A program made the position numbers and the translations under genes. This document shows, piece after piece, positions 32,495 to 57,641 of a stretch of 64,000 bases of DNA (the stretch's first letter is position 1; each line of letters begins with the position of its first letter). Origin of the DNA: Escherichia coli (lineage in GTDB: Bacteria; Pseudomonadota; Gammaproteobacteria; Enterobacterales; Enterobacteriaceae); the NCBI RefSeq assembly GCF_003018115.1, contig NZ_CP027457.1. One strand, given 5' to 3'. A model generated the notes under the pieces. It was not told the origin of the DNA. It saw only the letters and a program-made list of their open reading frames with translations, and searched no databases.

Positions 32495-35170
32495 TTAAGC
32501 GGATTTTTTCGCTTTTTTCTCAGCTTTAGCCGGAGCGGCTTCTTTTTTCGCTGCAGTTTCGCCTTCTACATAATCACGACCGTAGTAGGTATCCAGCAGA
32601 ATCTGTTTCAGCTCGGAGATCAGCGGGTAACGCGGGTTAGCGCCAGTGCACTGGTCATCGAATGCATCTTCAGACAGTTTATCCACGTTCGCCAGGAAGT
32701 CTGCTTCCTGAACGCCAGCTTCACGGATAGATTTCGGAATACCCAGTTCAGCCTTCAGCGTTTCCAGCCATGCCAGCAGTTTCTCGATCTTAGCAGCAGT
32801 ACGGTCGCCCGGTGCGCTCAGACCCAGGTGGTCGGCAATTTCAGCATAACGACGGCGAGCCTGCGGACGGTCATACTGGCTGAATGCAGTCTGCTTGGTC
32901 GGGTTGTCGTTCGCATTGTAGCGAATAACGTTACAAATCAGCAGGGCGTTTGCCAGACCGTGCGGAATATGGAACTGGGAACCCAGTTTGTGCGCCATTG
33001 AGTGACATACACCCAGGAAGGCGTTCGCAAACGCGATACCCGCGATAGTCGCTGCACTGTGAACACGTTCACGCGCTACCGGATTTTTAGACCCTTCGTG
33101 GTAGGACGCTGGCAGATATTCTTTCAGCAGTTTCAGTGCCTGCAGAGCCTGACCATCAGAGAACTCAGATGCCAGTACAGAAACATAAGCTTCCATGGCG
33201 TGAGTTACTGCGTCCAGACCACCGAAAGCACACAGGGACTTCGGCATGTCCATAACCAGGTTGGCGTCGACAATCGCCATATCCGGGGTCAGCGCATAGT
33301 CCGCCAGCGGGTATTTCTGACCAGTAGCGTCGTCAGTTACAACCGCAAACGGAGTGACTTCAGAACCTGTACCAGAAGTGGTGGTGACAGCAATCATTTT
33401 CGCTTTCACGCCCATTTTCGGGAACTTGTAGATACGTTTACGGATATCCATAAAGCGCAGCGCCAGCTCTTCGAAGTGAGTTTCCGGATGTTCGTACATA
33501 ACCCACATGATCTTCGCGGCGTCCATCGGGGAACCACCACCCAGCGCGATAATCACGTCTGGTTTGAAGGAGTTTGCCAGTTCTGCACCTTTACGAACGA
33601 TGCTCAGGGTCGGATCCGCTTCTACTTCGAAGAAGACTTCAGTTTCAACGCCTGCTGCTTTCAGTACGGAAGTGATCTGATCAGCATAACCATTGTTGAA
33701 CAGGAAGCGGTCAGTCACGATGAGCGCACGTTTGTGGCCATCAGTAATCACTTCATCCAGCGCGATTGGCAGGGAGCCACGGCGGAAGTAGATAGATTTC
33801 GGAAGTTTGTGCCACAACATGTTTTCAGCTCGCTTAGCAACGGTTTTCTTGTTGATCAGGTGTTTCGGACCAACGTTTTCAGAGATGGAGTTACCACCCC
33901 AGGAACCACAACCCAGAGTCAGGGAAGGTGCGAGTTTGAAGTTATACAGGTCACCGATACCACCCTGAGAAGCCGGGGTGTTAATCAGGATACGAGCCGT
34001 TTTCATTTTCTGACCGAAGTAAGAAACGCGAGCCGGTTGGTTATCCTGGTCAGTGTACAGGCAAGAGGTATGACCGATACCACCCATAGCAACCAGTTTC
34101 TCTGCTTTTTCTACCGCGTCTTCGAAATCTTTAGCGCGGTACATTGCCAGAGTCGGGGACAGTTTTTCATGTGCGAACGGTTCGCTTTCATCAACAACGG
34201 TCACTTCACCGATCAGAATCTTGGTGTTTTCTGGTACAGAGAAGCCTGCCAGTTCAGCAATTTTATAGGCTGGCTGACCAACGATAGCCGCGTTCAGCGC
34301 ACCGTTTTTCAGGATAACATCCTGAACAGCTTTCAGCTCTTTACCCTGCAACAGATAGCCGCCGTGGGTTGCGAAACGTTCACGTACTGCGTCATAAACA
34401 GAGTCAACAACAACAACAGACTGTTCAGAAGCACAGATTACGCCGTTGTCGAAGGTTTTGGACATCAGTACAGATGCAACTGCACGTTTGATATCAGCAG
34501 TTTCATCGATAACAACCGGAGTGTTACCCGCGCCTACGCCGATAGCTGGTTTACCGGAGCTGTATGCGGCTTTAACCATGCCCGGACCACCAGTCGCGAG
34601 GATCAGGTTGATGTCTGGGTGGTGCATCAGTGCGTTAGACAGTTCAACAGAAGGTTGATCGATCCAGCCGATCAGATCTTTCGGAGCACCGGCAGCGATA
34701 GCAGCCTGCAGAACGATATCAGCCGCTTTGTTGGTGGCATCTTTTGCACGCGGGTGCGGGGAGAAGATAATGGCGTTACGGGTCTTCAGGCTGATCAGCG
34801 ATTTGAAGATAGCAGTTGAAGTCGGGTTAGTGGTCGGAACGATACCGCAAATAATACCGATTGGTTCAGCGATAGTGATGGTACCAAAAGTGTCGTCTTC
34901 AGACAGAACACCACAGGTTTTTTCATCTTTATAGGCGTTGTAGATATATTCAGAAGCAAAGTGGTTTTTGATCACTTTATCTTCGACGATACCCATGCCG
35001 GATTCGGCAACGGCCATTTTCGCGAGTGGGATTCGAGCATCTGCAGCAGCCAGAGCGGCGGCGCGGAAGATTTTGTCTACTTGCTCTTGAGTGAAACTGG
35101 CATATTCACGCTGGGCTTTTTTTACACGCTCTACGAGTGCGTTAAGTTCAGCGACATTAGTAACAGCCAT
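32495..35170 (-). CDS. adhE: bifunctional acetaldehyde-CoA / alcohol dehydrogenase
   Basis: 891-aa [45 protein letters not shown]...; ALDH plus Fe-ADH domains. Confidence 0.96.
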
Positions 35171-49865: not shown

Positions 49866-50519
49866 ATGAAAAAGTTAACAGTGGCGGCTTTGGCAGTAAC
49901 AACTCTTCTCTCTGGCAGTGCCTATGCGCATGAAGCAGGCGAATTTTTTATGCGTGCAGGTTCTGCAACCGTACGTCCAACAGAAGGTGCTGGTGGTACG
50001 TTAGGAAGTCTGGGTGGATTCAGCGTGACCAATAACACTCAACTGGGCCTGACGTTTACTTATATGGCGACCGACAACATTGGTGTGGAATTACTGGCAG
50101 CGACGCCGTTCCGCCATAAAATCGGCACCCGGGCGACCGGCGATATTGCAACCGTTCATCATCTGCCGCCAACACTGATGGCGCAGTGGTATTTTGGTGA
50201 TGCCAGCAGCAAATTCCGTCCTTATGTTGGGGCAGGTATTAACTACACCACCTTCTTTGATAATGGATTTAACGATCATGGCAAAGAGGCGGGGCTTTCC
50301 GATCTCAGTCTGAAAGATTCCTGGGGAGCTGCCGGGCAGGTGGGGGTTGATTATCTGATTAACCGTGACTGGTTGGTTAACATGTCAGTGTGGTACATGG
50401 ATATCGATACCACGGCTAAGTATAAATCTGATGGTCGTAAACTGGCTAAAGGCAGTTATAGCGACAATGTACGCCTTGATCCGTGGGTGTTTATGTTCTC
50501 TGCAGGGTACCGTTTTTAA
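49866..50519 (+). CDS. ompW: outer membrane protein W
   Basis: 217-aa ORF with signal peptide MKKLTVAALAVTTLLSGSAYA and C-terminal aromatic beta-barrel signature (SAGYRF). Confidence 0.93.
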   Translation: MKKLTVAALAVTTLLSGSAYAHEAGEFFMRAGSATVRPTEGAGGTLGSLGGFSVTNNTQLGLTFTYMATDNIGVELLAATPFRHKIGTRATGDIATVHHLPPTLMAQWYFGDASSKFRPYVGAGINYTTFFDNGFNDHGKEAGLSDLSLKDSWGAAGQVGVDYLINRDWLVNMSVWYMDIDTTAKYKSDGRKLAKGSYSDNVRLDPWVFMFSAGYRF

Positions 50520-50524
50520 TTTGC

Positions 50525-50558
50525 TCTGCAAAACCTCTGCAAAACTCTTCTGCAAAAC
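50525..50558 (+). repeat. three direct repeats of tctgcaaaac immediately after the ompW stop (putative attL / integrase-binding region)
   Basis: tctgcaaaac at 50525, 50536 and 50549, followed by ctggtca..tgaccag hairpin plus T-run overlapping the int stop. Confidence 0.5.
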
Positions 50559-50564
50559 TGGTCA

Positions 50565-51695
50565 TCAAATGACCAGTTTTTTCCATTCCTTACCGCGTGC
50601 GTCGTTGTAAATATCGGTCATTTTTTGATTCGAATGGCCCAGCAAAATTTTGGTATCAATTCCCTGTTCTCTGAACAATCGTTCTGATAAAGATCTCTGC
50701 TCATGGAAAGAGGGTGGGGTGCCATTAGCACGCCAGTTGTAATCCACAGAATCCCGGGCTTTTTTAAATGCAACGGTTAACGTTGCTGGCTTAACCATCC
50801 CGCCGCGCTTAGCTGTCCCTTTAGCATGATGGTGGTGCAATAGCCACGGACTAAGAACGCAATCGCGACAGGATGACACCACATCATCCAGGGTGAGATT
50901 TAATTTATCGCAACGCAGAGCCAGAGGGATGGCAATCCGGGTTCCTGTTTTTTGCTGTTCGACATGAAGATAACCATCCCTGATATCCGAAAATTTCATT
51001 TTGCAAATATCTGAAAGGCGCTGGCCTGTCATCAGTGCCAGCAGCATACCACGCTGTAAAAAGTAACCATCCTTTTCCGCTGCATTATAAATCATCATCC
51101 ACTCATCAAAGGTCAGTCGTTGCCGTGATATCCGTACCTGTGGTTTTTTTGCCGATTCTGCAGGGTTAAAGCCTGGCGGGACATCGCCCGTTTGCTGGGC
51201 CTCCCGGAAAACATCAATCAGTACTTTCCTGAAAATTTGTCCCATTCTGTTATGTCCTTTTGCCTTGTAATCTTCCAGCACCGATACCACATCTTTTACG
51301 GTTATGGCATCTAAAGGTCTGGTACCAAAACGTTCATCAAATACCCTGAGAGGGGATGCTTTCTGTTTCAGTGTGTTGAGTTTGATCTCTCCGTTTTCAT
51401 ATCTTTCCTGTTGAATTTTTCGGTAACTATTCAGAAAAACCGAAACGGTTGATGAACCACCGGTATCACGAATAATTTTCTCCTGCAGAGTGAGCATTTG
51501 TTCCATTTGTTGCCTGGCAAGACGGCTGTTCGCTTCTGCTGCAATAGCTTCTGCCTGTTTCTGGTCAATACTGCCGAGCCCGTGATTTTTTCCTGTTATG
51601 GGATGCCTGTAACGCCAGTAAACTTTGTTATTTCTTTTGTCAAAATACGGAGATAATCCCGGAACTTCAGTTTTATATTTTCGTGGGCGCGCCAT
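50565..51695 (-). CDS. int: phage integrase (tyrosine recombinase, lambda Int-like)
   Basis: 376-aa ORF; N-terminal arm-binding-like region, C-terminal catalytic region with R...HxxR...Y pattern (HEQRSLSERL...LGHSNQKMTDIY). Confidence 0.9.
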   Translation of the reverse strand: MARPRKYKTEVPGLSPYFDKRNNKVYWRYRHPITGKNHGLGSIDQKQAEAIAAEANSRLARQQMEQMLTLQEKIIRDTGGSSTVSVFLNSYRKIQQERYENGEIKLNTLKQKASPLRVFDERFGTRPLDAITVKDVVSVLEDYKAKGHNRMGQIFRKVLIDVFREAQQTGDVPPGFNPAESAKKPQVRISRQRLTFDEWMMIYNAAEKDGYFLQRGMLLALMTGQRLSDICKMKFSDIRDGYLHVEQQKTGTRIAIPLALRCDKLNLTLDDVVSSCRDCVLSPWLLHHHHAKGTAKRGGMVKPATLTVAFKKARDSVDYNWRANGTPPSFHEQRSLSERLFREQGIDTKILLGHSNQKMTDIYNDARGKEWKKLVI

Positions 51696-51921
51696 CTTCC
51701 AGTATCCTCTTCAAAGCAGGGTGATCTGTGGCGATCACTTCCGGCTTGTTTACCATTCCGACAAAGCGAGCTCGAGGATCCACTCGCCAGTGTCTTCCAA
51801 CTTTTTTGGGGAGAGGAAATATCATTCCGGCTTTAGCGTATTTACTTAACGTGCCCGGAGTCGGGACCGGGTCACTGAATTCCTCTTTTGCCCACTCAGT
51901 GAGAAGAATAAGTCTTGCCAT
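51673..51921 (-). CDS. xis: excisionase (Xis-like)
   Basis: 82-aa ORF overlapping int start by 23 nt; lambda-Xis-like winged helix (EWAKEE...IFPLPKKVGRHWRV). Confidence 0.8.
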   Translation of the reverse strand: MARLILLTEWAKEEFSDPVPTPGTLSKYAKAGMIFPLPKKVGRHWRVDPRARFVGMVNKPEVIATDHPALKRILEDGAPTKI

Positions 51922-51985
51922 GAGAGTTGTTCGCTAATCATGGTCGCCGCCACTATAGCTTGCGGGCGACGACCGGGGTTGAACA

Positions 51986-54457
51986 TTAAAAATCAGCCTG
52001 ACTCGGGATCAGTTTTTGCCAGATGGCTGAAACGTATTTTGCCTGGTAACGCGCATCGTGCAGCGCGTTATGGCGTTCACCTTCGAATGGAATAGTCGTT
52101 CTTGCGTCGAAATCCATCACCAGTCCCAGAGCAACCATCGTTCTTACATCGCGATCATTGGTGTAACGCCACGGGCAGGGGATCCCCTGCCGTTCATATG
52201 AACGGCGTAAAATCACGTTGTCGAAAGTTGCACCGTTACCCCAGACCTGAACAAAAAATTCACCGGAGTTTTCGTCGATAAATTCCCGGAATTGCAGCAG
52301 TGCATCATCCAACGGGATTTCATCGGTCAGAATGGCGGATTGTGCTTCGCGTGACTGTTTCAGCCACCACTTAATGGTGCCCCGATCGATGACCCCGCCT
52401 GCGGTTTCCAGATCGATAGTTTTGCTGAATTCTGGCCCCATCTCTCCGGTTGCCGGATCAAAAAACTTACCGGCTATAGCGTTTATTGGCGCATCAGGAT
52501 TTTTTCCCATTGTTTCAAGGTCAATCATCAGATGGTGCCACAACCTGCTGGTGGATGTGATTTCATGATGACCGTTCACTTTAATTAAGGGATTTGCTGT
52601 CTCGCCAGTTTTATTATCGCTGGCGTGATACTGATCGCTGATAGTGTTCTCCTTGTGCAGATGTTCAGTGCCTTCCATTTCCTCCGGATCATTTTCCTGA
52701 GCTTCAGCCTGATTCTCTTCATCGAATGTTTCCTGGTAGGTTGCGTTCCCCATCACCGCACCACAGTCAGGACAGTTGCCGCCACCGGTCTGACCGCATG
52801 CGGTGCAAACTTTTTCCGGTTCTTGTTGCACTTCTGGTTCAGGCAGTTTCGTTTCTGGCTCGTTTTGTAACGCATTTGGACTGTTTTGTTCCGCTTTCTG
52901 GTCGTTTTGTTCCGATTCGGGCTGGTTCTGGTTCACAGAATCGCGGGTTTCAATCCCCTTAACCCATTTCGGATCATTCGGGTCGCTAATCCCTTCAACA
53001 AATTCACCACGTGATGCAGCAAGCAATTTATCGGTGTCAGGCTGGCTGATATTGGCTGCCTGCATAATTTTGTTTACTTCGTCAGCGGTAACTTTTACCG
53101 GCTCTGGTTGTTCTGAATCTTCTGCGGTATCTGTATTTTGCTGTAAGCCCGTATATGTGCCATTTTTTCGGGCAAAATATTCTTCTTTTGAGATTTCGGT
53201 ACCACCGGCAGCCAGCGCCTTGTCCAGGCCAGAAAGTTTGTTTGCCCTGCCGTATTTTTCCCCGTCCTTATCGGTAAAGACGAAATAAAACGGTCCTTCA
53301 CGCTCTACAGATGGTTCAGCTTCCACCAGGATTTCATTTTTTTGAGAATTGGATTCCGCCGTCTCCACTGGATCAGTTTGTGCTGCTGACGACAGGATAG
53401 CATCAGCAGAGCTCTGGTCTGTTTCTTCATGTTCAAACACGCCCTTTGTCGTCAGGTATTCGCTGATGTATTTGTTCAGTGCAACGGGATCTTTGTGAAT
53501 GTCGATCGGGCGCTCACGAACAAGGCCAAAAATAGTCTGACGGTCATAGCGAAGCGCATCAGGCTGTTTGCGCATTGATGCAGAGATACGCTTCCAGTCT
53601 TCGCGATCCTTGTCGATAACCTCATTTTTAGCCCAGCGATGGATGGTACCGTCAATGTTTCCGGCATCAATATCACCAGGCCAGAGAGCGTAAGCCAGCT
53701 CTTCATCCAGGGTTTTCCATGTCTGCTTGTATTCGCGACGAATGGCAGTAGTGACAGGGTTGATTTTTGCTGCTGAGTTTTCAGTGTGCTGTTGGTTGAC
53801 TCTGGCGCGGGCCAGCTCAACAACAGAAGTATGTTTCCCGGTTTCTTTTCGTTCTGCTTCGCGACGTTTTTTCCAGGTGCGCATCTCTGCCTGAATTTCT
53901 GGCCATTTGGCACCAGGCTTACATTTATGCTTAACCCACCCGATGGCATACAGCTTAAGCTCCGGATACATGGCGTTAACTTCTGGCATTTTCATCAAAG
54001 CTTCCACGATATGTCCGTCGAAGGTTGCCATGTCTTCCTGCAACAATTCCTGTGCGCTAATCACCATATCAACGGTGATGTTTTCACATGTATCGAACTT
54101 AACCATGACAGCGTTCTGTACTTCAGGGGCCAGCTTGTCAAAAGTGACGTTCATCGGATCTGATTCAGGTTCGACCGGGACAAAGGAAGCAGACGCCTCA
54201 TCCCAGCGGTTTTCCAGCATATATTCAGCATCCCAGGAGTCGAGGGCTGGGCGGGGTGTACCGGGTTTATCCTCACAGACAAGAAATTTATAAGCGCAGT
54301 CCTGAGCAGCCGGATAATGTTCAAGGAATTGCCAGTGAAATTTTGCGCGGGCGCGACGTTCATCACCGGCTTCAATGGCTGTGGCCACAGCAACAGCGCC
54401 CTCGTTTTTTATTGCCTGTTCGTCAGGAATGGCGGCGCAAATAAATATTTTACTCAT
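51986..54457 (-). CDS. large phage protein with C-terminal DEDDh (DnaQ-like) 3'-5' exonuclease domain and CxxC-x10-CxxC zinc ribbon
   Basis: 823-aa ORF; Exo I MIDLETMG, Exo II NGATFDNVIL, Exo III HNALHDARY at C-terminus; central acidic low-complexity region; CTACGQTGGGNCPDCG. Confidence 0.8.
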   Translation of the reverse strand: MSKIFICAAIPDEQAIKNEGAVAVATAIEAGDERRARAKFHWQFLEHYPAAQDCAYKFLVCEDKPGTPRPALDSWDAEYMLENRWDEASASFVPVEPESDPMNVTFDKLAPEVQNAVMVKFDTCENITVDMVISAQELLQEDMATFDGHIVEALMKMPEVNAMYPELKLYAIGWVKHKCKPGAKWPEIQAEMRTWKKRREAERKETGKHTSVVELARARVNQQHTENSAAKINPVTTAIRREYKQTWKTLDEELAYALWPGDIDAGNIDGTIHRWAKNEVIDKDREDWKRISASMRKQPDALRYDRQTIFGLVRERPIDIHKDPVALNKYISEYLTTKGVFEHEETDQSSADAILSSAAQTDPVETAESNSQKNEILVEAEPSVEREGPFYFVFTDKDGEKYGRANKLSGLDKALAAGGTEISKEEYFARKNGTYTGLQQNTDTAEDSEQPEPVKVTADEVNKIMQAANISQPDTDKLLAASRGEFVEGISDPNDPKWVKGIETRDSVNQNQPESEQNDQKAEQNSPNALQNEPETKLPEPEVQQEPEKVCTACGQTGGGNCPDCGAVMGNATYQETFDEENQAEAQENDPEEMEGTEHLHKENTISDQYHASDNKTGETANPLIKVNGHHEITSTSRLWHHLMIDLETMGKNPDAPINAIAGKFFDPATGEMGPEFSKTIDLETAGGVIDRGTIKWWLKQSREAQSAILTDEIPLDDALLQFREFIDENSGEFFVQVWGNGATFDNVILRRSYERQGIPCPWRYTNDRDVRTMVALGLVMDFDARTTIPFEGERHNALHDARYQAKYVSAIWQKLIPSQADF

Positions 54458-54741: not shown

Positions 54742-54926
54742 TGCTGCCCTCCGAAAATGCCAAGTTCAAGAAGGGCAATTCTGGAGAGTATGGAATTATC
54801 ATTGAGAAGATAAGGCTCATATTTTCTCATCCTGATGGCGTCCTCAGTAAACTCCCGGTTACTGAGCAGAATACCAATATTAAAACACCCTTCAGACGTA
54901 TTAACGTTTGGTAGTGACGTTTCCAT
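54738..54926 (-). CDS. hypothetical small phage protein
   Basis: 62-aa ORF translationally coupled to 54553..54741. Confidence 0.4.
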   Translation of the reverse strand: METSLPNVNTSEGCFNIGILLSNREFTEDAIRMRKYEPYLLNDNSILSRIALLELGIFGGQQ

Positions 54927-55101
54927 TATCGCGTCCTCAACAATGAATTTTGTGATGTGGTGCCTGGTGCCTCCAGGTGACGTTAACCAGTTAACAATTA
55001 ACGCCGGATTGTTAGTTGATGTCTGTTACGCCAGTAAAAGACCGCTTGTTTTAACTGTTCCGCGTGCGCTTAGCCGCATTCACCGCATCACAAAATACAC
55101 T

Positions 55102-55131
55102 TTAAAAATGGCGGATATCCATTTCCGCCGA
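55102..55131 (-). terminator. putative leftward-strand terminator within prophage early-left region
   Basis: ggcgga..tccgcc / aaatgg..ccattt inverted repeats with adjacent A-run on plus (T-run on minus). Confidence 0.4.
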
Positions 55132-55475
55132 ATCACCAGAAAAGTGATAACAGAGGTTGTTGTGGCGGTGTTGTCACTCAGGCGCATGGTCAACCTGACA
55201 ACCCGGTGCATTTTCTGGAGCAATGGAGGAAGCCCCAGCCATACTTACCGCCGCGCCATTTCGCGGATTGCCACAACCGGAAGCGCACGATCGAATTAAA
55301 TTTAACGACAAGCCTTATATTCTCGCCGTGCGCTTTCGTGTTATGCCCTGACTTTTCAGGGATATGTTCTTTCAGCAAACTGTCAGTGCCGGATTCTTAT
55401 CCGTGTCCGGCGCACGACCACACGTGACAGCGTGTTGGTCTCCATTTTTAACCCAGAACCTCTATGGAGGATAAA

Positions 55476-55778
55476 ATGCACTCTAAATCAAATCGATATT
55501 ATGTTCATGTGCAGTTATTTGAAGCAACAATGGAACAGGAGAAAAAGTTCGAGACTCTGATGCCAAATTTTAAATACTCCAGGATGATTAATGAAGGTGA
55601 CGTTGAATATAAATTGTTGCCAGGGGCATACGTTATTCAGTCAACGCTCAATTCGAATCAAATACTTGAACAAACCTTTTCTGTTGCTAATTCAGTTGGT
55701 GTTAATGCTCACATTTTTGTTTGCCCTTATGATGAAAGTGCAACCCTTTTGCCTTGTGCTGATTTTGGCACTTACTAA
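55476..55778 (+). CDS. hypothetical AT-rich accessory (moron-like) protein
   Basis: ORF 55464..55778; second ATG at 55476 has strong SD (tggaggataaaATG); 100 aa; opposite orientation to the surrounding leftward operon. Confidence 0.55.
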   Translation: MHSKSNRYYVHVQLFEATMEQEKKFETLMPNFKYSRMINEGDVEYKLLPGAYVIQSTLNSNQILEQTFSVANSVGVNAHIFVCPYDESATLLPCADFGTY

Positions 55779-56082
55779 CTAAATTTAATTTATGTTCAAG
55801 TTCGGCTATTTGCATACGTAGTGCTTTAACCATTGTTTCATGATAAATCTCACTCACTCCACCTGGGTGTGGGGTGAATTTAGGTGAATAATCTTTGTTT
55901 TCAGAACTCAGCTTCTCTTCGTACAGCTTGATAAAGGCATTACGCACATTATGGGATATATTGTCGATGGTTTCTTTTTCTACGGTACTCAGGTCAAGAG
56001 TCGCCAGTTGAGAACGAACTATATTCGCTGCCATATCCTGGAATGGTACTGGTAAATCTTTAAATTCCATCGTCAACCTCAT
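55702..56082 (-). CDS. hypothetical phage early-left protein
   Basis: 126-aa ORF whose ATG overlaps stop of the YdaF-like gene; 3' end overlaps the convergent plus-strand ORF by 77 nt. Confidence 0.5.
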   Translation of the reverse strand: MRLTMEFKDLPVPFQDMAANIVRSQLATLDLSTVEKETIDNISHNVRNAFIKLYEEKLSSENKDYSPKFTPHPGGVSEIYHETMVKALRMQIAELEHKLNLVSKCQNQHKAKGLHFHHKGKQKCEH

Positions 56083-56237
56083 CAGTCAGTGTTTCTGGCT
56101 AACCAGCGATGCGCGCCAGCTTCAGTTTTAAACGTTTTGCTTCTGGTATACGTCATCGCGGTAAACGTGCCGTCCTGGTTAGGGAACACACCGCATACCA
56201 GAGATTCGTTGTTGCCAAGATTGAGTGTATCCATGTT
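56082..56237 (-). CDS. YdaF-like small phage protein (first gene of leftward operon)
   Basis: C-terminal 51 aa of ORF 56082..56390 (MDTLNLGNNESLVCGVFPNQDGTFTAMTYTRSKTFKTEAGAHRWLARNTD) recalled as Rac YdaF-like; the upstream part of the ORF overlaps the predicted OL/pL. Confidence 0.5.
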   Translation of the reverse strand, partial: NMDTLNLGNNESLVCGVFPNQDGTFTAMTYTRSKTFKTEAGAHRWLARNTD

Positions 56238-56349
56238 GACCTCATTTGCCCTTAACGCCGGGTAGCGGAACTGTTTGCTGAGAACACCGTGCGGTGTCTT
56301 GATGGATTGTAATTTAGTTTTCTCATGGTGCTTGGTCAAGTGTTTTTGA

Positions 56350-56363
56350 TGAGAAAACTCAAC
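56350..56363. promoter_or_regulatory. putative left operator (OL), gagaaaactcaa motif
   Basis: same 12-nt motif as in the repressor–cro intergenic operator, located just downstream of the repressor gene. Confidence 0.45.
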
Positions 56364-56423
56364 ATTTAATGCAAAACAAAGCCAATACATTGAAATGTAA
56401 GGCTTTAAATTTTGTGAAGGGGG

Positions 56424-56831
56424 TTATTGATGTTTGTTACGTTTGCGAGCTTCTAGTAGCTCGGTGAATAGGCGATTAAAATTCTCAACGCGGGCACGGA
56501 GTTCGCTGATCTGTGCTTGCTGCTCTGATTTTGGAAGTGCGCGATACAATCGCAACATCTCCGACTCATCTTCCGATAAGTCTAAGGCGCTGTTGAGTGC
56601 AACTGGTGGATCTGGTGTTTTATCCTCGTCACCAAACAGTATCCAAGTTGGTGAACATTGCAATACCTCAGCCAGGCGATGCAAATTTTGCCCGCGCGGG
56701 GCTGTATGGTCGCTTTCCCATAGTGAAATTGATGAGCCAGATACACCAGCAGCTTTGCTTAAATCGTTTTGACTTAAACCAACCTGTTTGCGTCTTTCTC
56801 TAATTCGTTGACCTAAAGTTTTCTCGTTCAT
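56424..56831 (-). CDS. DicA-like HTH (XRE family) prophage repressor
   Basis: 135-aa ORF; HTH LSQNDLSKAAGVSGSSISLWE; strong resemblance to DicA incl. VLQCSPTWILFGDEDK and C-terminal RARVENFNRLFTELLEARKR. Confidence 0.88.
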   Translation of the reverse strand: MNEKTLGQRIRERRKQVGLSQNDLSKAAGVSGSSISLWESDHTAPRGQNLHRLAEVLQCSPTWILFGDEDKTPDPPVALNSALDLSEDESEMLRLYRALPKSEQQAQISELRARVENFNRLFTELLEARKRNKHQ

Positions 56832-56849
56832 ATTTAGATATCTTAATAA

Positions 56850-56900
56850 CCCTTGACTTGAGATTCCTTGAGTGATTACTATTGAGAAAACTCAAGCCTG
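56850..56900. promoter_or_regulatory. divergent immunity promoter/operator region (OR)
   Basis: TTGACT -35-like element, cttgag repeats and palindrome ttgag-aaaa-ctcaa (56883..56896) between repressor and cro-like gene. Confidence 0.55.
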
Positions 56901-56908
56901 GAGGGGTG

Positions 56909-57136
56909 ATGTTTAAATCAGACGTAATTAATTTTTATGGGACGAAAGCCAAAGTAGCGAAAGCTGCTGGTGTTGATCCATCTGCTGTTTCTCAATGGGG
57001 GAAACTGGTCCCTGAAGGTCGCGCGATGCGCCTGCAAGAGGCATCCGGCGGGGAGCTTCAGTATGACCCCAAAGTTTATGACGAATATCGTAAGACGAAG
57101 CGGGCGGGGCGGTTGAACAATGAAAATCACCCTTGA
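56909..57136 (+). CDS. Cro/DicC-like regulator
   Basis: ORF 56882..57136, likely starting at MFKSDVINFYG; divergent from repressor; DicC-like (YGTKAKVAKAAGV...VPEGRAMRLQEASGGELQYDPKVYDEY). Confidence 0.75.
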   Translation: MFKSDVINFYGTKAKVAKAAGVDPSAVSQWGKLVPEGRAMRLQEASGGELQYDPKVYDEYRKTKRAGRLNNENHP

Positions 57137-57641
57137 GCAGGCACGCGATGCCCTGGATGCCTGGATAAGCCGACCAGGAATGACGCAGGAGCAGGCGACG
57201 ATATTAATTACTGAAGCCTTCTGGGCTCTACAGGAACGCCCGAACATCGATGTTCAGCGTGTCACGCTTGATGATGGCGGGGTTGATCAGCGTGCGCTTG
57301 GCGTTAACCGGGTGAAGATATTCGAACGCTGGAAGGCTATCGACACCAGGGATAAGCGTGAAAAATTCACGGCGCTGATTCCGGCAATTATGGAGGCTAT
57401 CCGGATTAGTGATTTCAGGTTGTACCGCGAAATTACTGACGGAAAAAGCATTACGTACATGATTGCCGGGTTAAACAAAGAATATGGCGATGTGGTGGAG
57501 TCCGGGCTGCTTTTTGCAGATCCAGCTGTTGTGGAACGTGAGACAGACGAGCTTATAGAAAAAGCAATCGCTTTCAAGCGTGCCTATCGTCACCAGTACC
57601 AACAAAAAGCCGGATGGAATTATGAGCCTTCTTTTTGCTGA
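57120..57641 (+). CDS. YdaT-like protein (cII-position, Rac YdaT family)
   Basis: 173-aa ORF in the position of Rac ydaT; shares the ...ALIPAIMEAI... segment as recalled. Confidence 0.6.
   Translation: MKITLEQARDALDAWISRPGMTQEQATILITEAFWALQERPNIDVQRVTLDDGGVDQRALGVNRVKIFERWKAIDTRDKREKFTALIPAIMEAIRISDFRLYREITDGKSITYMIAGLNKEYGDVVESGLLFADPAVVERETDELIEKAIAFKRAYRHQYQQKAGWNYEPSFC

Follow-up and report, generated by a model that had tools for sequence, protein, structure and literature searches.

The dicA-dicC-dicB immunity locus of the cryptic prophage Qin of E. coli K-12 was reportedly described by Bejar et al. (1986/1988). According to later work on this locus (Yun et al. 2012, PMC3441716; Ragunathan et al. 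2023, PMC10448788), the K-12 repressor DicA binds the operator Oc, activates its own gene and represses dicC (PMC3441716). Oc is an experimentally supported operator at the dicC promoter, and in vivo DicA bound to Oc only and not to the sites Om or Oa (PMC3441716). The DicA/DicC pair is bistable and RecA-independent and works with the anti-repressor Rem (PMC10448788). In the case of other lambdoid prophages, the YdaT proteins are established functional equivalents of lambda CII (PMC9986795, PMC11879457, PMC8630535), and short repressors of the Gifsy type are controlled by anti-repressors, e.g. via the isrK-orf45-anrP locus of Gifsy-1 (PMC4825925, and Lemire et al. 2011 as cited there).

The locus studied here lies in a 64,000-nucleotide stretch of an E. 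coli chromosome (the window), which takes in only the first ~13 kb of the prophage. It is very probably the immunity (lysis-lysogeny) switch of a lambdoid prophage situated by ompW, of the DicA/DicC type first described in K-12 Qin. Such a switch is of a well-understood kind and there is nothing new in kind about it, the part of lambda CII being probably played by a gene of the YdaT family; what we describe appears to be a previously uncharacterised specificity allele, with an operator sequence of its own, of the known DicA/DicC system. The gene identities, the positions and the conservation of the operators, and the co-variation of the operators with the repressor type are shown at the sequence level. 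That DicA binds and activates its own gene, what DicC does, which target the YdaT-like protein has and how induction proceeds are inferred from the experiments on K-12, Rac and CP-933P. The original prediction had called the switch 'Rac/Qin-type': the Qin (DicA/DicC) half of that label stands, but the Rac (RacR/YdaS) half does not, the YdaT-family gene alone being common with Rac. The genes of the locus are already named correctly in the public annotation.

The likeness to Qin extends over the order and orientation of the genes (ydfA and dicA leftward, dicC and ydfX/ydaT rightward), the length of DicA (135 aa in both), the main operator on the -10/+1 region of the dicC promoter, the leftward promoter with its TTGACC -35 and two bracketing operator copies, the almost identical ydfA leader, and the presence of dicB and ydfD. 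Unlike in Qin, the operator is TTGAGAAAACTCAA (vs TTGTTAGTTATGACTAACAA) and the HTH residues of DicA and DicC differ, which implies a different immunity specificity. Behind dicC the prophage has an intact gene (173 aa), of which Qin retains a truncated form (YdfX, 96 aa). Moreover, replication genes are present, dicF is partly conserved, a 126-aa ORF stands in place of ydfB and ydfC, and no Rem homologue was found within the window.

With Rac (RacR-YdaS-YdaT) and CP-933P of O157:H7 (YdaS-YdaT) the locus shares a YdaT-family gene between the cro analogue and the replication genes (PMC11879457, PMC9986795, PMC8630535) and an HTH with a conserved recognition-helix Arg-Trp, and with Rac also a candidate box-like sequence over the start codon and a DUF1391 gene (ydaF/ydfA) downstream of the repressor. 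It has, however, DicA and a P22-Cro-type DicC where Rac has RacR (158 aa) and YdaS, and its YdaT-family protein differs from those of Rac and CP-933P in length (173 vs ~140 aa), in sequence (~25-30% identity) and in its two predicted C-terminal helices. As in lambda (CI/Cro/CII) and P22 (C2/Cro/C1), repressor and cro genes are divergent, the operators lie over PR- and PL-like promoters and an establishment activator follows cro; DicC belongs to Pfam P22_Cro and the HTH of DicA resembles that of C2. Unlike in these phages, the repressor lacks an S24 autocleavage domain, the CII analogue has no sequence relationship with lambda CII, one strong right operator is evident instead of three graded ones, and no N-type antiterminator gene adjoins the leftward promoter. 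The features are listed in Table 1.

Table 1. Features of the DicA/DicC immunity region and of the operons on either side (positions are those of the window).
Feature	Position	Strand	Description
dicB homologue, 62 aa	54738..54926	-	Pfam DicB PF05358, 115.7 bits, full length
ydfA homologue (DUF1391), 50 aa	56082..56234	-	first gene of the leftward operon; Pfam DUF1391, 99.6 bits
Leftward promoter-like site (dicBp/PL analogue)	56311..56339	-	-35 TTGACC (56339-56334), 17-nt spacer, -10 TAAATT (56316-56311)
Putative left operator OL2	56313..56326		TTTAGTTTTCTCAT (= ATGAGAAAACTAAA on minus); overlaps -10 and spacer of the leftward promoter
Putative left operator OL1	56349..56362		ATGAGAAAACTCAA; 9 bp upstream of the leftward promoter -35
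Hairpin followed by GUUUUG	56372..56414	-	directly after the dicA stop codon; RNA fold -13.2 kcal/mol, z = -3.55
dicA-type repressor, 135 aa	56424..56831	-	N-terminal HTH_3 and conserved DicA C-terminal region
Oa-like imperfect palindrome	56833..56846		TTTAGATATCTTAA; adjoins the dicA start codon
dicC (PR-like) promoter	56853..56882	+	-35 TTGACT, 18-nt spacer, -10 TACTAT (56877-56882)
Om-like weak operator	56858..56871		TTGAGATTCCTTGA; 9/14 matches to Oc; within the dicC promoter spacer
Putative main right operator Oc	56882..56895		perfect 14-bp palindrome TTGAG-AAAA-CTCAA; overlaps the last -10 base and the dicC transcription start region
dicC (Cro analogue), 75 aa	56909..57136	+	divergent from dicA; NCBIfam DicC PRK09744, Pfam P22_Cro
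Candidate YdaT-box	57113..57130		TTGAAC-AATGAA-AATCAC; spans the ydaT-like start codon; positional analogy alone
YdaT-family, CII-like transcription factor, 173 aa	57120..57641	+	Pfam, profile, PHROGs and predicted structure
O-like replication initiator	57622..58599	+	phrog_391, 1.2e-90
DnaC-like helicase loader	58606..59346	+	NCBIfam PRK12377, 467.5 bits
Candidate induction module	60495..61285	+	isrK-like RNA (60495-60569), C4-like antisense RNA (60595-60679), ORF6N anti-repressor gene (60734..61285)

The repressor matches the NCBIfam model PRK09706 over residues 1-135 of 135 with 237.8 bits (cut-off 101) and is 55% identical to K-12 DicA, and the C-terminal DicA motifs LQCSPTWILFGDED...LPxSEQ...RARVxNFNxLF are invariant in the repressor alignment. 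A Pfam scan of the protein returned HTH models alone and no Peptidase_S24, which bears out the earlier description of a DicA-like repressor consisting of an HTH without a peptidase domain. DicC scores 166.8 bits against NCBIfam PRK09744 (cut-off 130) and 63.2 bits against Pfam P22_Cro; it shares 72% identity with K-12 DicC and departs from it in the N-terminal HTH alone.

The exact 13-mer TGAGAAAACTCAA occurs at two places in the window (56350-56362 and 56883-56895), and a search for more copies brought up a third, inverted one, TGAGAAAACTAAA (56313-56325, minus strand), which has one mismatch to the 13-mer and had been missed before. Together with the copy at 56349-56362 it forms an inverted repeat, the arms of which are 93% complementary and 22 nt apart. 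Allowing at most one mismatch, there are three occurrences in the window where 0.06 are expected, and none of 100 shuffles gets to three; allowing at most two, the four occurrences (1.68 expected, 8 of 100 shuffles get to four) are not above chance. All three copies fall into non-coding DNA, in the two stretches on either side of the repressor gene. The original prediction had placed operators on both sides of that gene: motif copies are indeed found where operators would be expected, including the copy just downstream of the repressor gene (ATGAGAAAACTCAA at 56349-56362), but there are two putative operators on the left rather than one, and the palindrome ttgag-aaaa-ctcaa, though present, lies at 56882-56895, one base lower than the 56883-56896 given for it.

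In the right region, Oc occupies the position equivalent to that of K-12 Oc at the dicC promoter, whose TTGACT -35 also occurs in K-12, PPompW and the Stenotrophomonas phage. The region appears to hold two further, weaker operator-like sites besides Oc. The left half of the Om-like site is conserved and its right half variable. The Oa-like site matches Oc at 10 of 14 positions, and its minus strand includes TAAGAT, a -10-like hexamer, 8 nt ahead of the dicA ATG; the site is invariant in the 22 right-region variants and has a similar counterpart in all four DicA immunity types. The dicA start is without a Shine-Dalgarno sequence, and the -10 within Oa may act as a dicA promoter that gives a leaderless dicA mRNA. 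Since K-12 DicA bound Oc alone in vivo, the weaker Om- and Oa-like sites may not be DicA operators, and the likeness of Oa across immunity types is more easily explained by a promoter element or a DicC site than by a DicA site that determines specificity.

In the left region, the promoter-like site has 9/12 consensus matches in a consensus scan, and its -35, GGTCAA on the other strand, aligns with that of K-12 Qin dicBp. Across 38 locus variants the promoter hexamers are almost invariant and OL2 is near-invariant, while a site equivalent to OL1 occurs in three other DicA immunity types with a different sequence in each. Bracketed by OL1 and OL2 downstream of dicA, this promoter is probably the analogue of dicBp that drives ydfA...dicB. 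The hairpin behind the dicA stop codon was not called by a simple terminator scan; as a candidate intrinsic terminator, it could separate dicA from the leftward operon.

Within the immunity type, the spacers around the operators and promoter hexamers are about ten times as variable as these elements themselves: over 38 distinct variants of the left region the mean variability is 0.014 for operators, 0.007 for promoter hexamers and 0.128 for the other intergenic positions (Mann-Whitney p = 1.4e-4), and in the 22 right-region variants Oc and Oa are essentially invariant. Between types, the layout of the operators is the same in K-12 Qin, PPompW_EH1846 and the Stenotrophomonas phage, the palindromes being TTGTTAGTTATGACTAACAA, CTTAGGAAAATCTAAG and TTGTTAGAAAAATCTAACA, respectively, and in each of these loci its own palindrome recurs in the right and left regions. 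The repressors of the different types are well conserved in the C-terminal half, and much of their variation falls in the HTH region at the N-terminus, where it also affects the stretch of the recognition helix (VSGSSISLWE in the present type); the differences in DicC are likewise limited to the HTH. Conservation and co-variation lend indirect support to a DicA that would bind these operators, repress dicC and the leftward promoter and activate its own gene, as has been shown in K-12 alone. Many E. coli chromosomes carry the module with 100% identity, and the isolated phages HannyBb and mEp460_ev081 have it at ~90%; of 5,426 complete E. coli genomes, 474 contain DNA that matches at least 80% of a 2-kb query.

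The earlier suggestion that the gene after cro is YdaT-like is well supported. The 173-aa protein scores 26.4 bits against Pfam PF06254 YdaT_toxin (threshold 21), is 89% identical to K-12 YdfX over 93 aa and is assigned to phrog_163, 'CII-like transcriptional activator' (1.6e-40); a profile of 16 sequences finds the YdaT structures 8bt1 (7.8e-17) and 3c4r (1.1e-16) in the PDB, although the identity to characterised YdaT proteins is only ~25-30%. In the AF2 model (pLDDT 84.8; helices 5-16, 23-35, 57-73 and 77-97, loop 36-56) the sole confident PDB match is YdaT 8bt1 (probability 1.00, TM 0.64 target-normalised, E = 9e-3). The protein is predicted to have a POU-like all-alpha HTH with a long alpha2-alpha3 loop and an Arg-Trp pair in the recognition helix. 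This pair, R70 and W71, is invariant and aligns with R57 and W58 of Rac YdaT, which are needed for binding and fold (PMC11879457). Where YdaT has one tetramerisation helix, the monomer model has two C-terminal helices (111-130 and 135-164, pLDDT ~72-85). The Pfam scan of the protein returned YdaT_toxin alone and no match to the lambda CII family; the protein would be a functional analogue of lambda CII and is not a member of the CII family. As YdaT proteins are CII analogues, the alternative posed originally, YdaT or a cII-type activator, was a false choice.

The ydaT-like gene follows the cro analogue dicC and precedes the O-like and DnaC-like replication genes, an order shared by HannyBb, PPompW, Citrobacter and Rac. 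The candidate YdaT-box agrees in register with the box of Rac, ATGATT-CATGAA-AATCAA (PMC11879457), and matches 9 of the 12 specified bases of TTGATT-N6-AATCAA (3 mismatches), but at up to three mismatches the pattern is not above chance (35 matches vs 39.7 expected), and the resemblance to the Rac box arises in part because both sequences encode Met-Lys-Ile.

Among the genes of the left operon, the ydfA homologue is 84% identical to K-12 YdfA by tblastn, and RefSeq labels the identical DNA as encoding a DUF1391 family protein; a YdfD homologue is also present. The distal gene of this leftward early operon, dicB, encodes a cell-division inhibitor. For the dicF sRNA no Rfam DicF match was obtained, whether with the gathering score as limit or with E <= 1; of K-12 dicF, just the flanks can be aligned (minus strand, 55086-55156), the core being shorter here. 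As an accessory, this sRNA is not among the defining features of the switch. On the right side, the O-like gene contains internal iterons (GGTCAAAATG, four times at 57971-58073).

Since DicA is without an autocleavage domain, induction would be expected to proceed via an anti-repressor or intrinsic instability of the repressor, and not via RecA-mediated cleavage. The isrK/C4/ORF6N module further downstream is a candidate, and only that, for such a route: both RNAs have Rfam matches above the gathering score, and the ORF6N gene product matches Pfam ORF6N and phrog_2379, anti-repressor (1.1e-77). As in Gifsy-1, a short non-cleavable repressor is combined with an isrK-like RNA upstream of an anti-repressor-family gene in the same prophage; unlike in Gifsy-1, no LexA box was found near the locus and isrK is separated from the anti-repressor gene by a C4-like RNA. 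An action of this anti-repressor on DicA would be a candidate relationship. The module is found also in Stx phages with other repressors (~79% identity), and it was not found at high coverage in HannyBb.

Taken together with the K-12 work, the locus could operate as follows. In the lysogen, DicA dimers would occupy the 14-bp palindrome Oc (TTGAGAAAACTCAA), which lies on the -10/+1 of the rightward promoter, so that dicC, the YdaT-family gene and the O/DnaC-like replication genes would be shut off, and DicA on the two related operators that bracket the leftward promoter would keep ydfA...dicB...xis/int off. By analogy with K-12, Oc-bound DicA would stimulate its own weak promoter, which is without a -35 and has its -10-like element inside Oa by the dicA ATG. 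On loss of DicA, the P22-Cro-type DicC would be made and keep dicA down, which would make the switch bistable. After infection, the 173-aa POU-like HTH protein, as CII analogue, is expected to bind near the dicC/ydaT junction and might drive leftward transcription into dicA, establishing repression.

Other explanations of the same observations have to be weighed. That the repeated 13-mer is a chance or hitch-hiking repeat without regulatory role draws on the lack of enrichment at two mismatches, but is scarcely credible given the 3 copies at one mismatch against 0.06 expected, their intergenic position around the repressor gene and over promoter-like elements, their conservation in 38 variants in which the nearby spacer bases vary freely, and the recurrence in three other DicA immunity types of an own palindrome at the same three places. 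It is highly improbable, too, that the repressor is of the SOS-cleavable lambda CI/P22 C2 type and induced by RecA-stimulated autocleavage: its N-terminal HTH does resemble P22 C2 (~47% identity over residues 1-72) and the copy in mEp460_ev081 is annotated 'Phage repressor protein C2', yet a protein of 135 aa that has HTH models without Peptidase_S24 in Pfam and matches the DicA model from end to end argues against cleavage, as does the finding that K-12 dicBp is not induced by mitomycin C and switches spontaneously in a recA-independent manner (PMC10448788).

The names in the databases would make the cro-like and 173-aa genes a YdaS/YdaT-type toxin-antitoxin pair in which the 173-aa protein blocks division: Pfam offers YdaT_toxin (26.4 bits) and, at 22.2 bits and thus under the threshold of 30, YdaS_toxin, RefSeq uses 'toxin YdaT family protein', and over-expressed Rac YdaT leads to filamentation and death (PMC11879457). 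We consider this very unlikely. The upstream gene encodes a DicC/P22-Cro protein below the YdaS threshold, the 173-aa protein has the YdaT HTH fold and has kept the DNA-binding Arg-Trp pair, and for YdaS/YdaT the toxin-antitoxin hypothesis failed by experiment, context and biochemistry making them Cro/CII equivalents (PMC5917428, PMC9986795, PMC8630535). The original remark that Rac YdaT is toxic and affects division is right as to filamentation on over-expression, which Rac YdaT brings about as a transcription factor, by way of rcsA (PMC11879457); the 'toxin' label is a misnomer of historical origin. Doubtful, though deserving consideration, is a switch that is real but vestigial, in a prophage as defective as Qin, where the module now just silences dicB and other toxic genes of the left operon. 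The homologous K-12 module does exactly so (PMC10448788), the window holds ~13 kb of prophage and dicF is partly conserved; on the other hand, the YdaT-family gene is, unlike in Qin, of full length (173 aa vs the 96-aa remnant YdfX) and intact O-like and DnaC-like genes come after it, int, xis, Q and later genes are annotated in the identical prophage of strain RM7190, and the isolated phages HannyBb and mEp460_ev081 carry the same immunity module. What is at issue there is the condition of the prophage rather than how the switch works.

Beyond the DicA/DicC switch with a YdaT-family CII analogue, a further-reaching reading in three parts can be put forward, which we regard, as a whole, as speculative and rather unlikely. 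The 173-aa proteins might form a distinct YdaT subfamily, which would have one more helix at the C-terminus, recognise a site different from TTGATT-N6-AATCAA and have been recruited to immunity regions of both the DicA type and the YdaS type (the latter in Citrobacter). The near-universal 'Oa' palindrome might not be a specificity-determining DicA operator but a shared DicC site or a promoter element of leaderless dicA. The DicA allele, finally, might be induced via the isrK/C4-RNA-controlled ORF6N anti-repressor ~4 kb downstream; if true, this would tie an RNA-gated anti-repressor to a Qin-type switch.

Taken alone, a textbook-style immunity region is of little importance, and the practical value is modest: a set of operators (Oc, OL1, OL2) and promoters appears to be defined for a common DicA immunity allele. 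The locus does provide a clean natural example of a repressor and its operator changing together across four DicA specificities, and it presents the intact form of a gene that is left in K-12 as the remnant ydfX. Prophages of this kind at ompW can reportedly be integration platforms for Stx phages (PMC8112680), and knowledge of their switch may thus help to predict superinfection immunity and the control of dicB.

The genes at 56082-57641 constitute an immunity module of the Qin type (dicA/dicC) and not of the Rac type (racR/ydaS), because homologues of DicA, DicC, YdfA, DicB and YdfD were identified; from the "Rac/Qin-type" switch of the original prediction, only the Qin part is therefore retained. 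The 135-aa repressor matched the NCBIfam DicA model end-to-end (237.8 bits, cut-off 101) and is 55% identical to K-12 DicA. As had been predicted, it is DicA-like and consists of an HTH only: Pfam yielded HTH models and no S24 peptidase in this protein. The 75-aa protein matched the DicC model end-to-end (166.8 bits, cut-off 130) as well as Pfam P22_Cro, is 72% identical to K-12 DicC and scored under the threshold for YdaS.

Features of the dicA/dicC switch region and its surroundings (positions in the window)
Feature	Position	Strand	Details
DicB (PF05358) and YdfD/DUF1482 homologue	further left	minus	Pfam
ydfA homologue (YdfA/DUF1391)	56082..56234	minus	50 aa; downstream of dicA
Promoter-like site into ydfA	TTGACC 56339-56334; TAAATT 56316-56311	minus	17-nt spacer
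dicA	56424..56831	minus	135 aa
Oa, operator-like sequence	56833-56846		TTTAGATATCTTAA; 10/14 positions match Oc
Sigma-70-like promoter into dicC	56853-56882	plus	TTGACT, 18 nt, TACTAT; promoter scan
Om, operator-like sequence	56858-56871		TTGAGATTCCTTGA; 9/14 positions match Oc
dicC	56909..57136	plus	75 aa
YdaT-family gene	57120..57641	plus	173 aa; 17-nt overlap with dicC
O-like initiator	57622..58599		325 aa; right of the 173-aa gene
DnaC-like loader	58606..59346		246 aa; right of the O-like gene
isrK-like RNA	60495-60569	plus	51.2 bits, above Rfam gathering score
C4 antisense-like RNA	60595-60679	plus	69.4 bits, above Rfam gathering score
ORF6N/anti-repressor gene	60734..61285	plus	phrog_2379, full length, 1.1e-77; the two RNAs directly upstream

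Both non-coding stretches that border the repressor gene carry copies of a single motif, and together they hold all three. Direct reading places the perfect palindrome TTGAG-AAAA-CTCAA (Oc, the main right operator) at 56882-56895, one base lower than originally given, and its 13-mer TGAGAAAACTCAA is repeated exactly at 56350-56362, in line with the predicted recurrence downstream of the repressor gene. The search for further copies that had been suggested recovered one that was overlooked at first, at 56313-56325, inverted and with one mismatch, which forms with the copy at 56349-56362 a 14-nt inverted repeat with arms 22 nt apart. Operators on both sides of the repressor are supported by position, co-variation and conservation, the left operators being two and not one as had been proposed. 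At one mismatch or less the 64-kb window contains 3 copies, versus 0.06 expected and a number reached in no shuffle; at two mismatches the signal within the window is lost in the background. With respect to the promoters, Oc starts at the final base of the -10 of the dicC promoter, and at the ydfA promoter-like site one left copy overlaps the -10 and the spacer while the other is situated upstream of the -35, at a distance of 9 bp.

The same layout is seen in K-12 Qin, where a 20-bp inverted repeat, also termed Oc, has the equivalent position relative to the dicC -10 and where Oc mutations abolish DicA binding in vivo (PMC3441716). The K-12 promoter dicBp has the same GGTCAA -35 as found here, bracketed by two Oc-related copies; it is the PL analogue under DicA repression, and operator sequences are present in both intergenic regions (PMC10448788). 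We compared four DicA immunity types, with the palindromes TTGAGAAAACTCAA (the window and phage HannyBb), TTGTTAGTTATGACTAACAA (K-12 Qin), CTTAGGAAAATCTAAG (PPompW_EH1846) and TTGTTAGAAAAATCTAACA (Stenotrophomonas phage BUCT708), and in all four the sequence peculiar to the locus, as found in the right region, reappears downstream of dicA. The repressors of these types are 49-55% identical, with a well-conserved C-terminal half, and much of their variation falls within the HTH region at the N-terminus, the stretch of the recognition helix included (it reads VSGSSISLWE in the window type versus xxHVxxSQWE in each of the remaining three); the DicC proteins vary in the N-terminal HTH only.

Variation within the type was studied in 80 IMG/VR loci with a repressor 98-100% identical to the one here (a homologue search with the DicA alignment gave no others), from which 38 different left-region cores and 22 different right regions were obtained. 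The mean per-column variability was 0.014 in the two left operators and 0.007 in the promoter hexamers, against 0.128 elsewhere (p = 1.4e-4), and Oc was almost invariant among the 22 right-region variants. That the motif copies arose by chance, or were carried along by hitch-hiking, appears very unlikely from these sequence comparisons, because position, the comparison with K-12, co-variation and the footprint of within-type conservation combine against it.

The ydfA operon leader (56235-56305, minus strand) is near-identical to that of K-12 Qin and the neighbouring operators are wholly different, and therefore the mosaic boundary lies exactly at the operators. The leader carries a short ACACCG..CGGTGT hairpin, but since its folding is no better than that of shuffled sequence (z = -0.36) we do not claim an RNA element there. 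Further to the left, a 126-aa ORF without known function (phrog_6937; 55702-56082, minus) stands in the place of Qin ydfB and ydfC, and a convergent 104-aa ORF that overlaps it (55464-55778, plus) has a weak match to the YmfI phage family (109 bits, cut-off 140). An Rfam DicF match was absent from the window; K-12 dicF aligns at its flanks only (55156-55133 and 55114-55086, minus), with a shorter core here, and an STnc100 match below threshold (31.4 bits versus 47) lies upstream of dicB at 54916-55111. The region 54916-55156 (minus) may encode a divergent sRNA of the dicF region. A Citrobacter locus (L010) was rejected as a fifth DicA type, its 135-aa repressor not being a DicA orthologue outside the HTH; the palindrome belonging to that repressor, AAAACTAnnAGTTTT, likewise occurs on both sides of its gene.

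The K-12 counterparts of the weaker right-region sites Om and Oa are not bound by DicA in vivo (PMC3441716). Oa is unchanged in 22/22 right-region variants, and the Oa-like sequences are alike across all four immunity types. On the dicA strand these contain a -10-like hexamer (TAAGAT here and TAGAAT in two of the others) that precedes the ATG by 8-9 nt, and they lack a Shine-Dalgarno sequence before the dicA ATG. We infer that the hexamer could be a dicA promoter that is weak, depends on an activator and yields an mRNA with almost no leader (compare lambda PRM), and Oa may be the site where DicC shuts off dicA. At the other end of the gene, a hairpin followed by GUUUUG (56372-56414, minus; -13.2 kcal/mol, z = -3.55) starts 10 nt past the stop codon and is probably the dicA terminator; in PPompW_EH1846 a different hairpin with a T-run takes its position.

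The repressor has no autocleavage domain. In K-12, mitomycin C leaves dicBp uninduced, switching is recA-independent and Rem acts as anti-repressor (PMC10448788). A tblastn search of the window gave no homologue of K-12 Rem. No LexA box was found near the locus, and we see no evidence for SOS control because the sole match to CTGT-N8-ACAG in the window (at 34421) is distant and within chance. About 4 kb to the right of the switch lies an isrK/C4/ORF6N module, the arrangement of which resembles isrK-orf45-anrP of Gifsy-1, a prophage that is induced by AnrP (PMC4825925). The module recurs with about 79% identity in Stx phages (Stx2) that have other repressors, and in HannyBb no high-coverage match to it was obtained; its link to DicA would be purely hypothetical. 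The adjacent DNA contains a sok antitoxin RNA (61388-61562, plus; 117 bits) next to the site of hokD in the identical prophage of E. coli strain RM7190, and Qin similarly has a type I TA system within the prophage. Inside the O-like initiator gene, GGTCAAAATG occurs four times without mismatch (at 57971, 57994, 58017 and 58064, phased at 23 bp), and these copies resemble origin iterons. After them comes a perfect tandem repeat of 12 bp, ACAGAGAATACA x3.8 (58087-58132), that codes for TENT repeats.

A 2-kb region around the switch has 100% identity with many E. coli chromosomes, and at least 80% of this query is matched by DNA in 474 of 5,426 complete genomes. In RM7190 it belongs to a prophage beside ompW with annotated int, xis, Q and other genes, and the isolated phages HannyBb and mEp460_ev081 also carry the module. 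By mapping onto RM7190, the prophage starts with the integrase gene beside ompW (about 49870-51990), such that the window holds its first ~13 kb only, the other ~50 kb, to the left, being host chromosome (cls, kch, tonB, yciABC, ompW). The system is of a well-characterised kind; our literature search found no paper with the operator string of this allele, and its operator specificity was not found described.

The gene after dicC was correctly recognized as YdaT-like. The 173-aa protein scored 26.4 with Pfam YdaT_toxin (threshold 21), and over residues 1-93 it shares 89% identity with K-12 YdfX, so that YdfX is a truncated remnant of the same gene. Because a single-sequence PDB search gave marginal matches only (E = 0.025 and 0.038), a homologue profile was needed. 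The profile, A6, comprises 16 full-length homologues from two protein searches and replaces A5, in which frameshifted and chimeric entries from the databases (P0040, P0055, P0069) were included; A6 matched both YdaT crystal structures at about 1e-16. The invariant R70 and W71 correspond in the alignment to Rac YdaT R57 and W58; in Rac YdaT, R57 reportedly stabilises the DNA interaction and W58 maintains the fold, and the H56A/R57A double mutation abolishes DNA binding (PMC11879457). In an AF2 model (pLDDT 84.8) the HTH domain is helical and a long loop precedes the recognition helix; the sole confident PDB match of the model is YdaT (8bt1, probability 1.00). Compared to the characterised YdaT members the protein differs in its length of 173 aa, the identity is about 25-30%, and two C-terminal helices are predicted where those have one tetramerisation helix.

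YdaT had been presented as reportedly toxic in Rac, and alignment of the 173-aa protein to a cII-type activator as the alternative to YdaT. The latter is a false choice, because YdaT proteins are functional equivalents of lambda CII (PMC9986795, PMC8630535, PMC11879457). PHROGs classifies the protein as 'CII-like transcriptional activator' (1.6e-40), the annotation also given to the HannyBb copy, and by analogy the reading as a CII analogue, and not a toxin, is supported. A candidate YdaT-box, so proposed from its position, is TTGAAC-AATGAA-AATCAC at 57113-57130, across the start codon of the 173-aa gene and in register with the Rac box ATGATT-CATGAA-AATCAA. Box-like sequences cover the start codon in Citrobacter homologues too; part of the box consists of codons for a shared Met-Lys-Ile, a consensus search gave 35 matches versus 39.7 expected (i.e. 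not above chance), and a scan of 56900-57700 for short inverted repeats found none at the dicC/ydaT junction.

The same YdaT subfamily (about 44% identity, 165 aa) is encountered in Citrobacter after a cro of the YdaS type accompanied by a 162-aa repressor (locus L008) and, in L010, after the different 135-aa HTH repressor. Judged from the gene arrangements, the CII-like gene is modular, its exchange being independent of the immunity genes.
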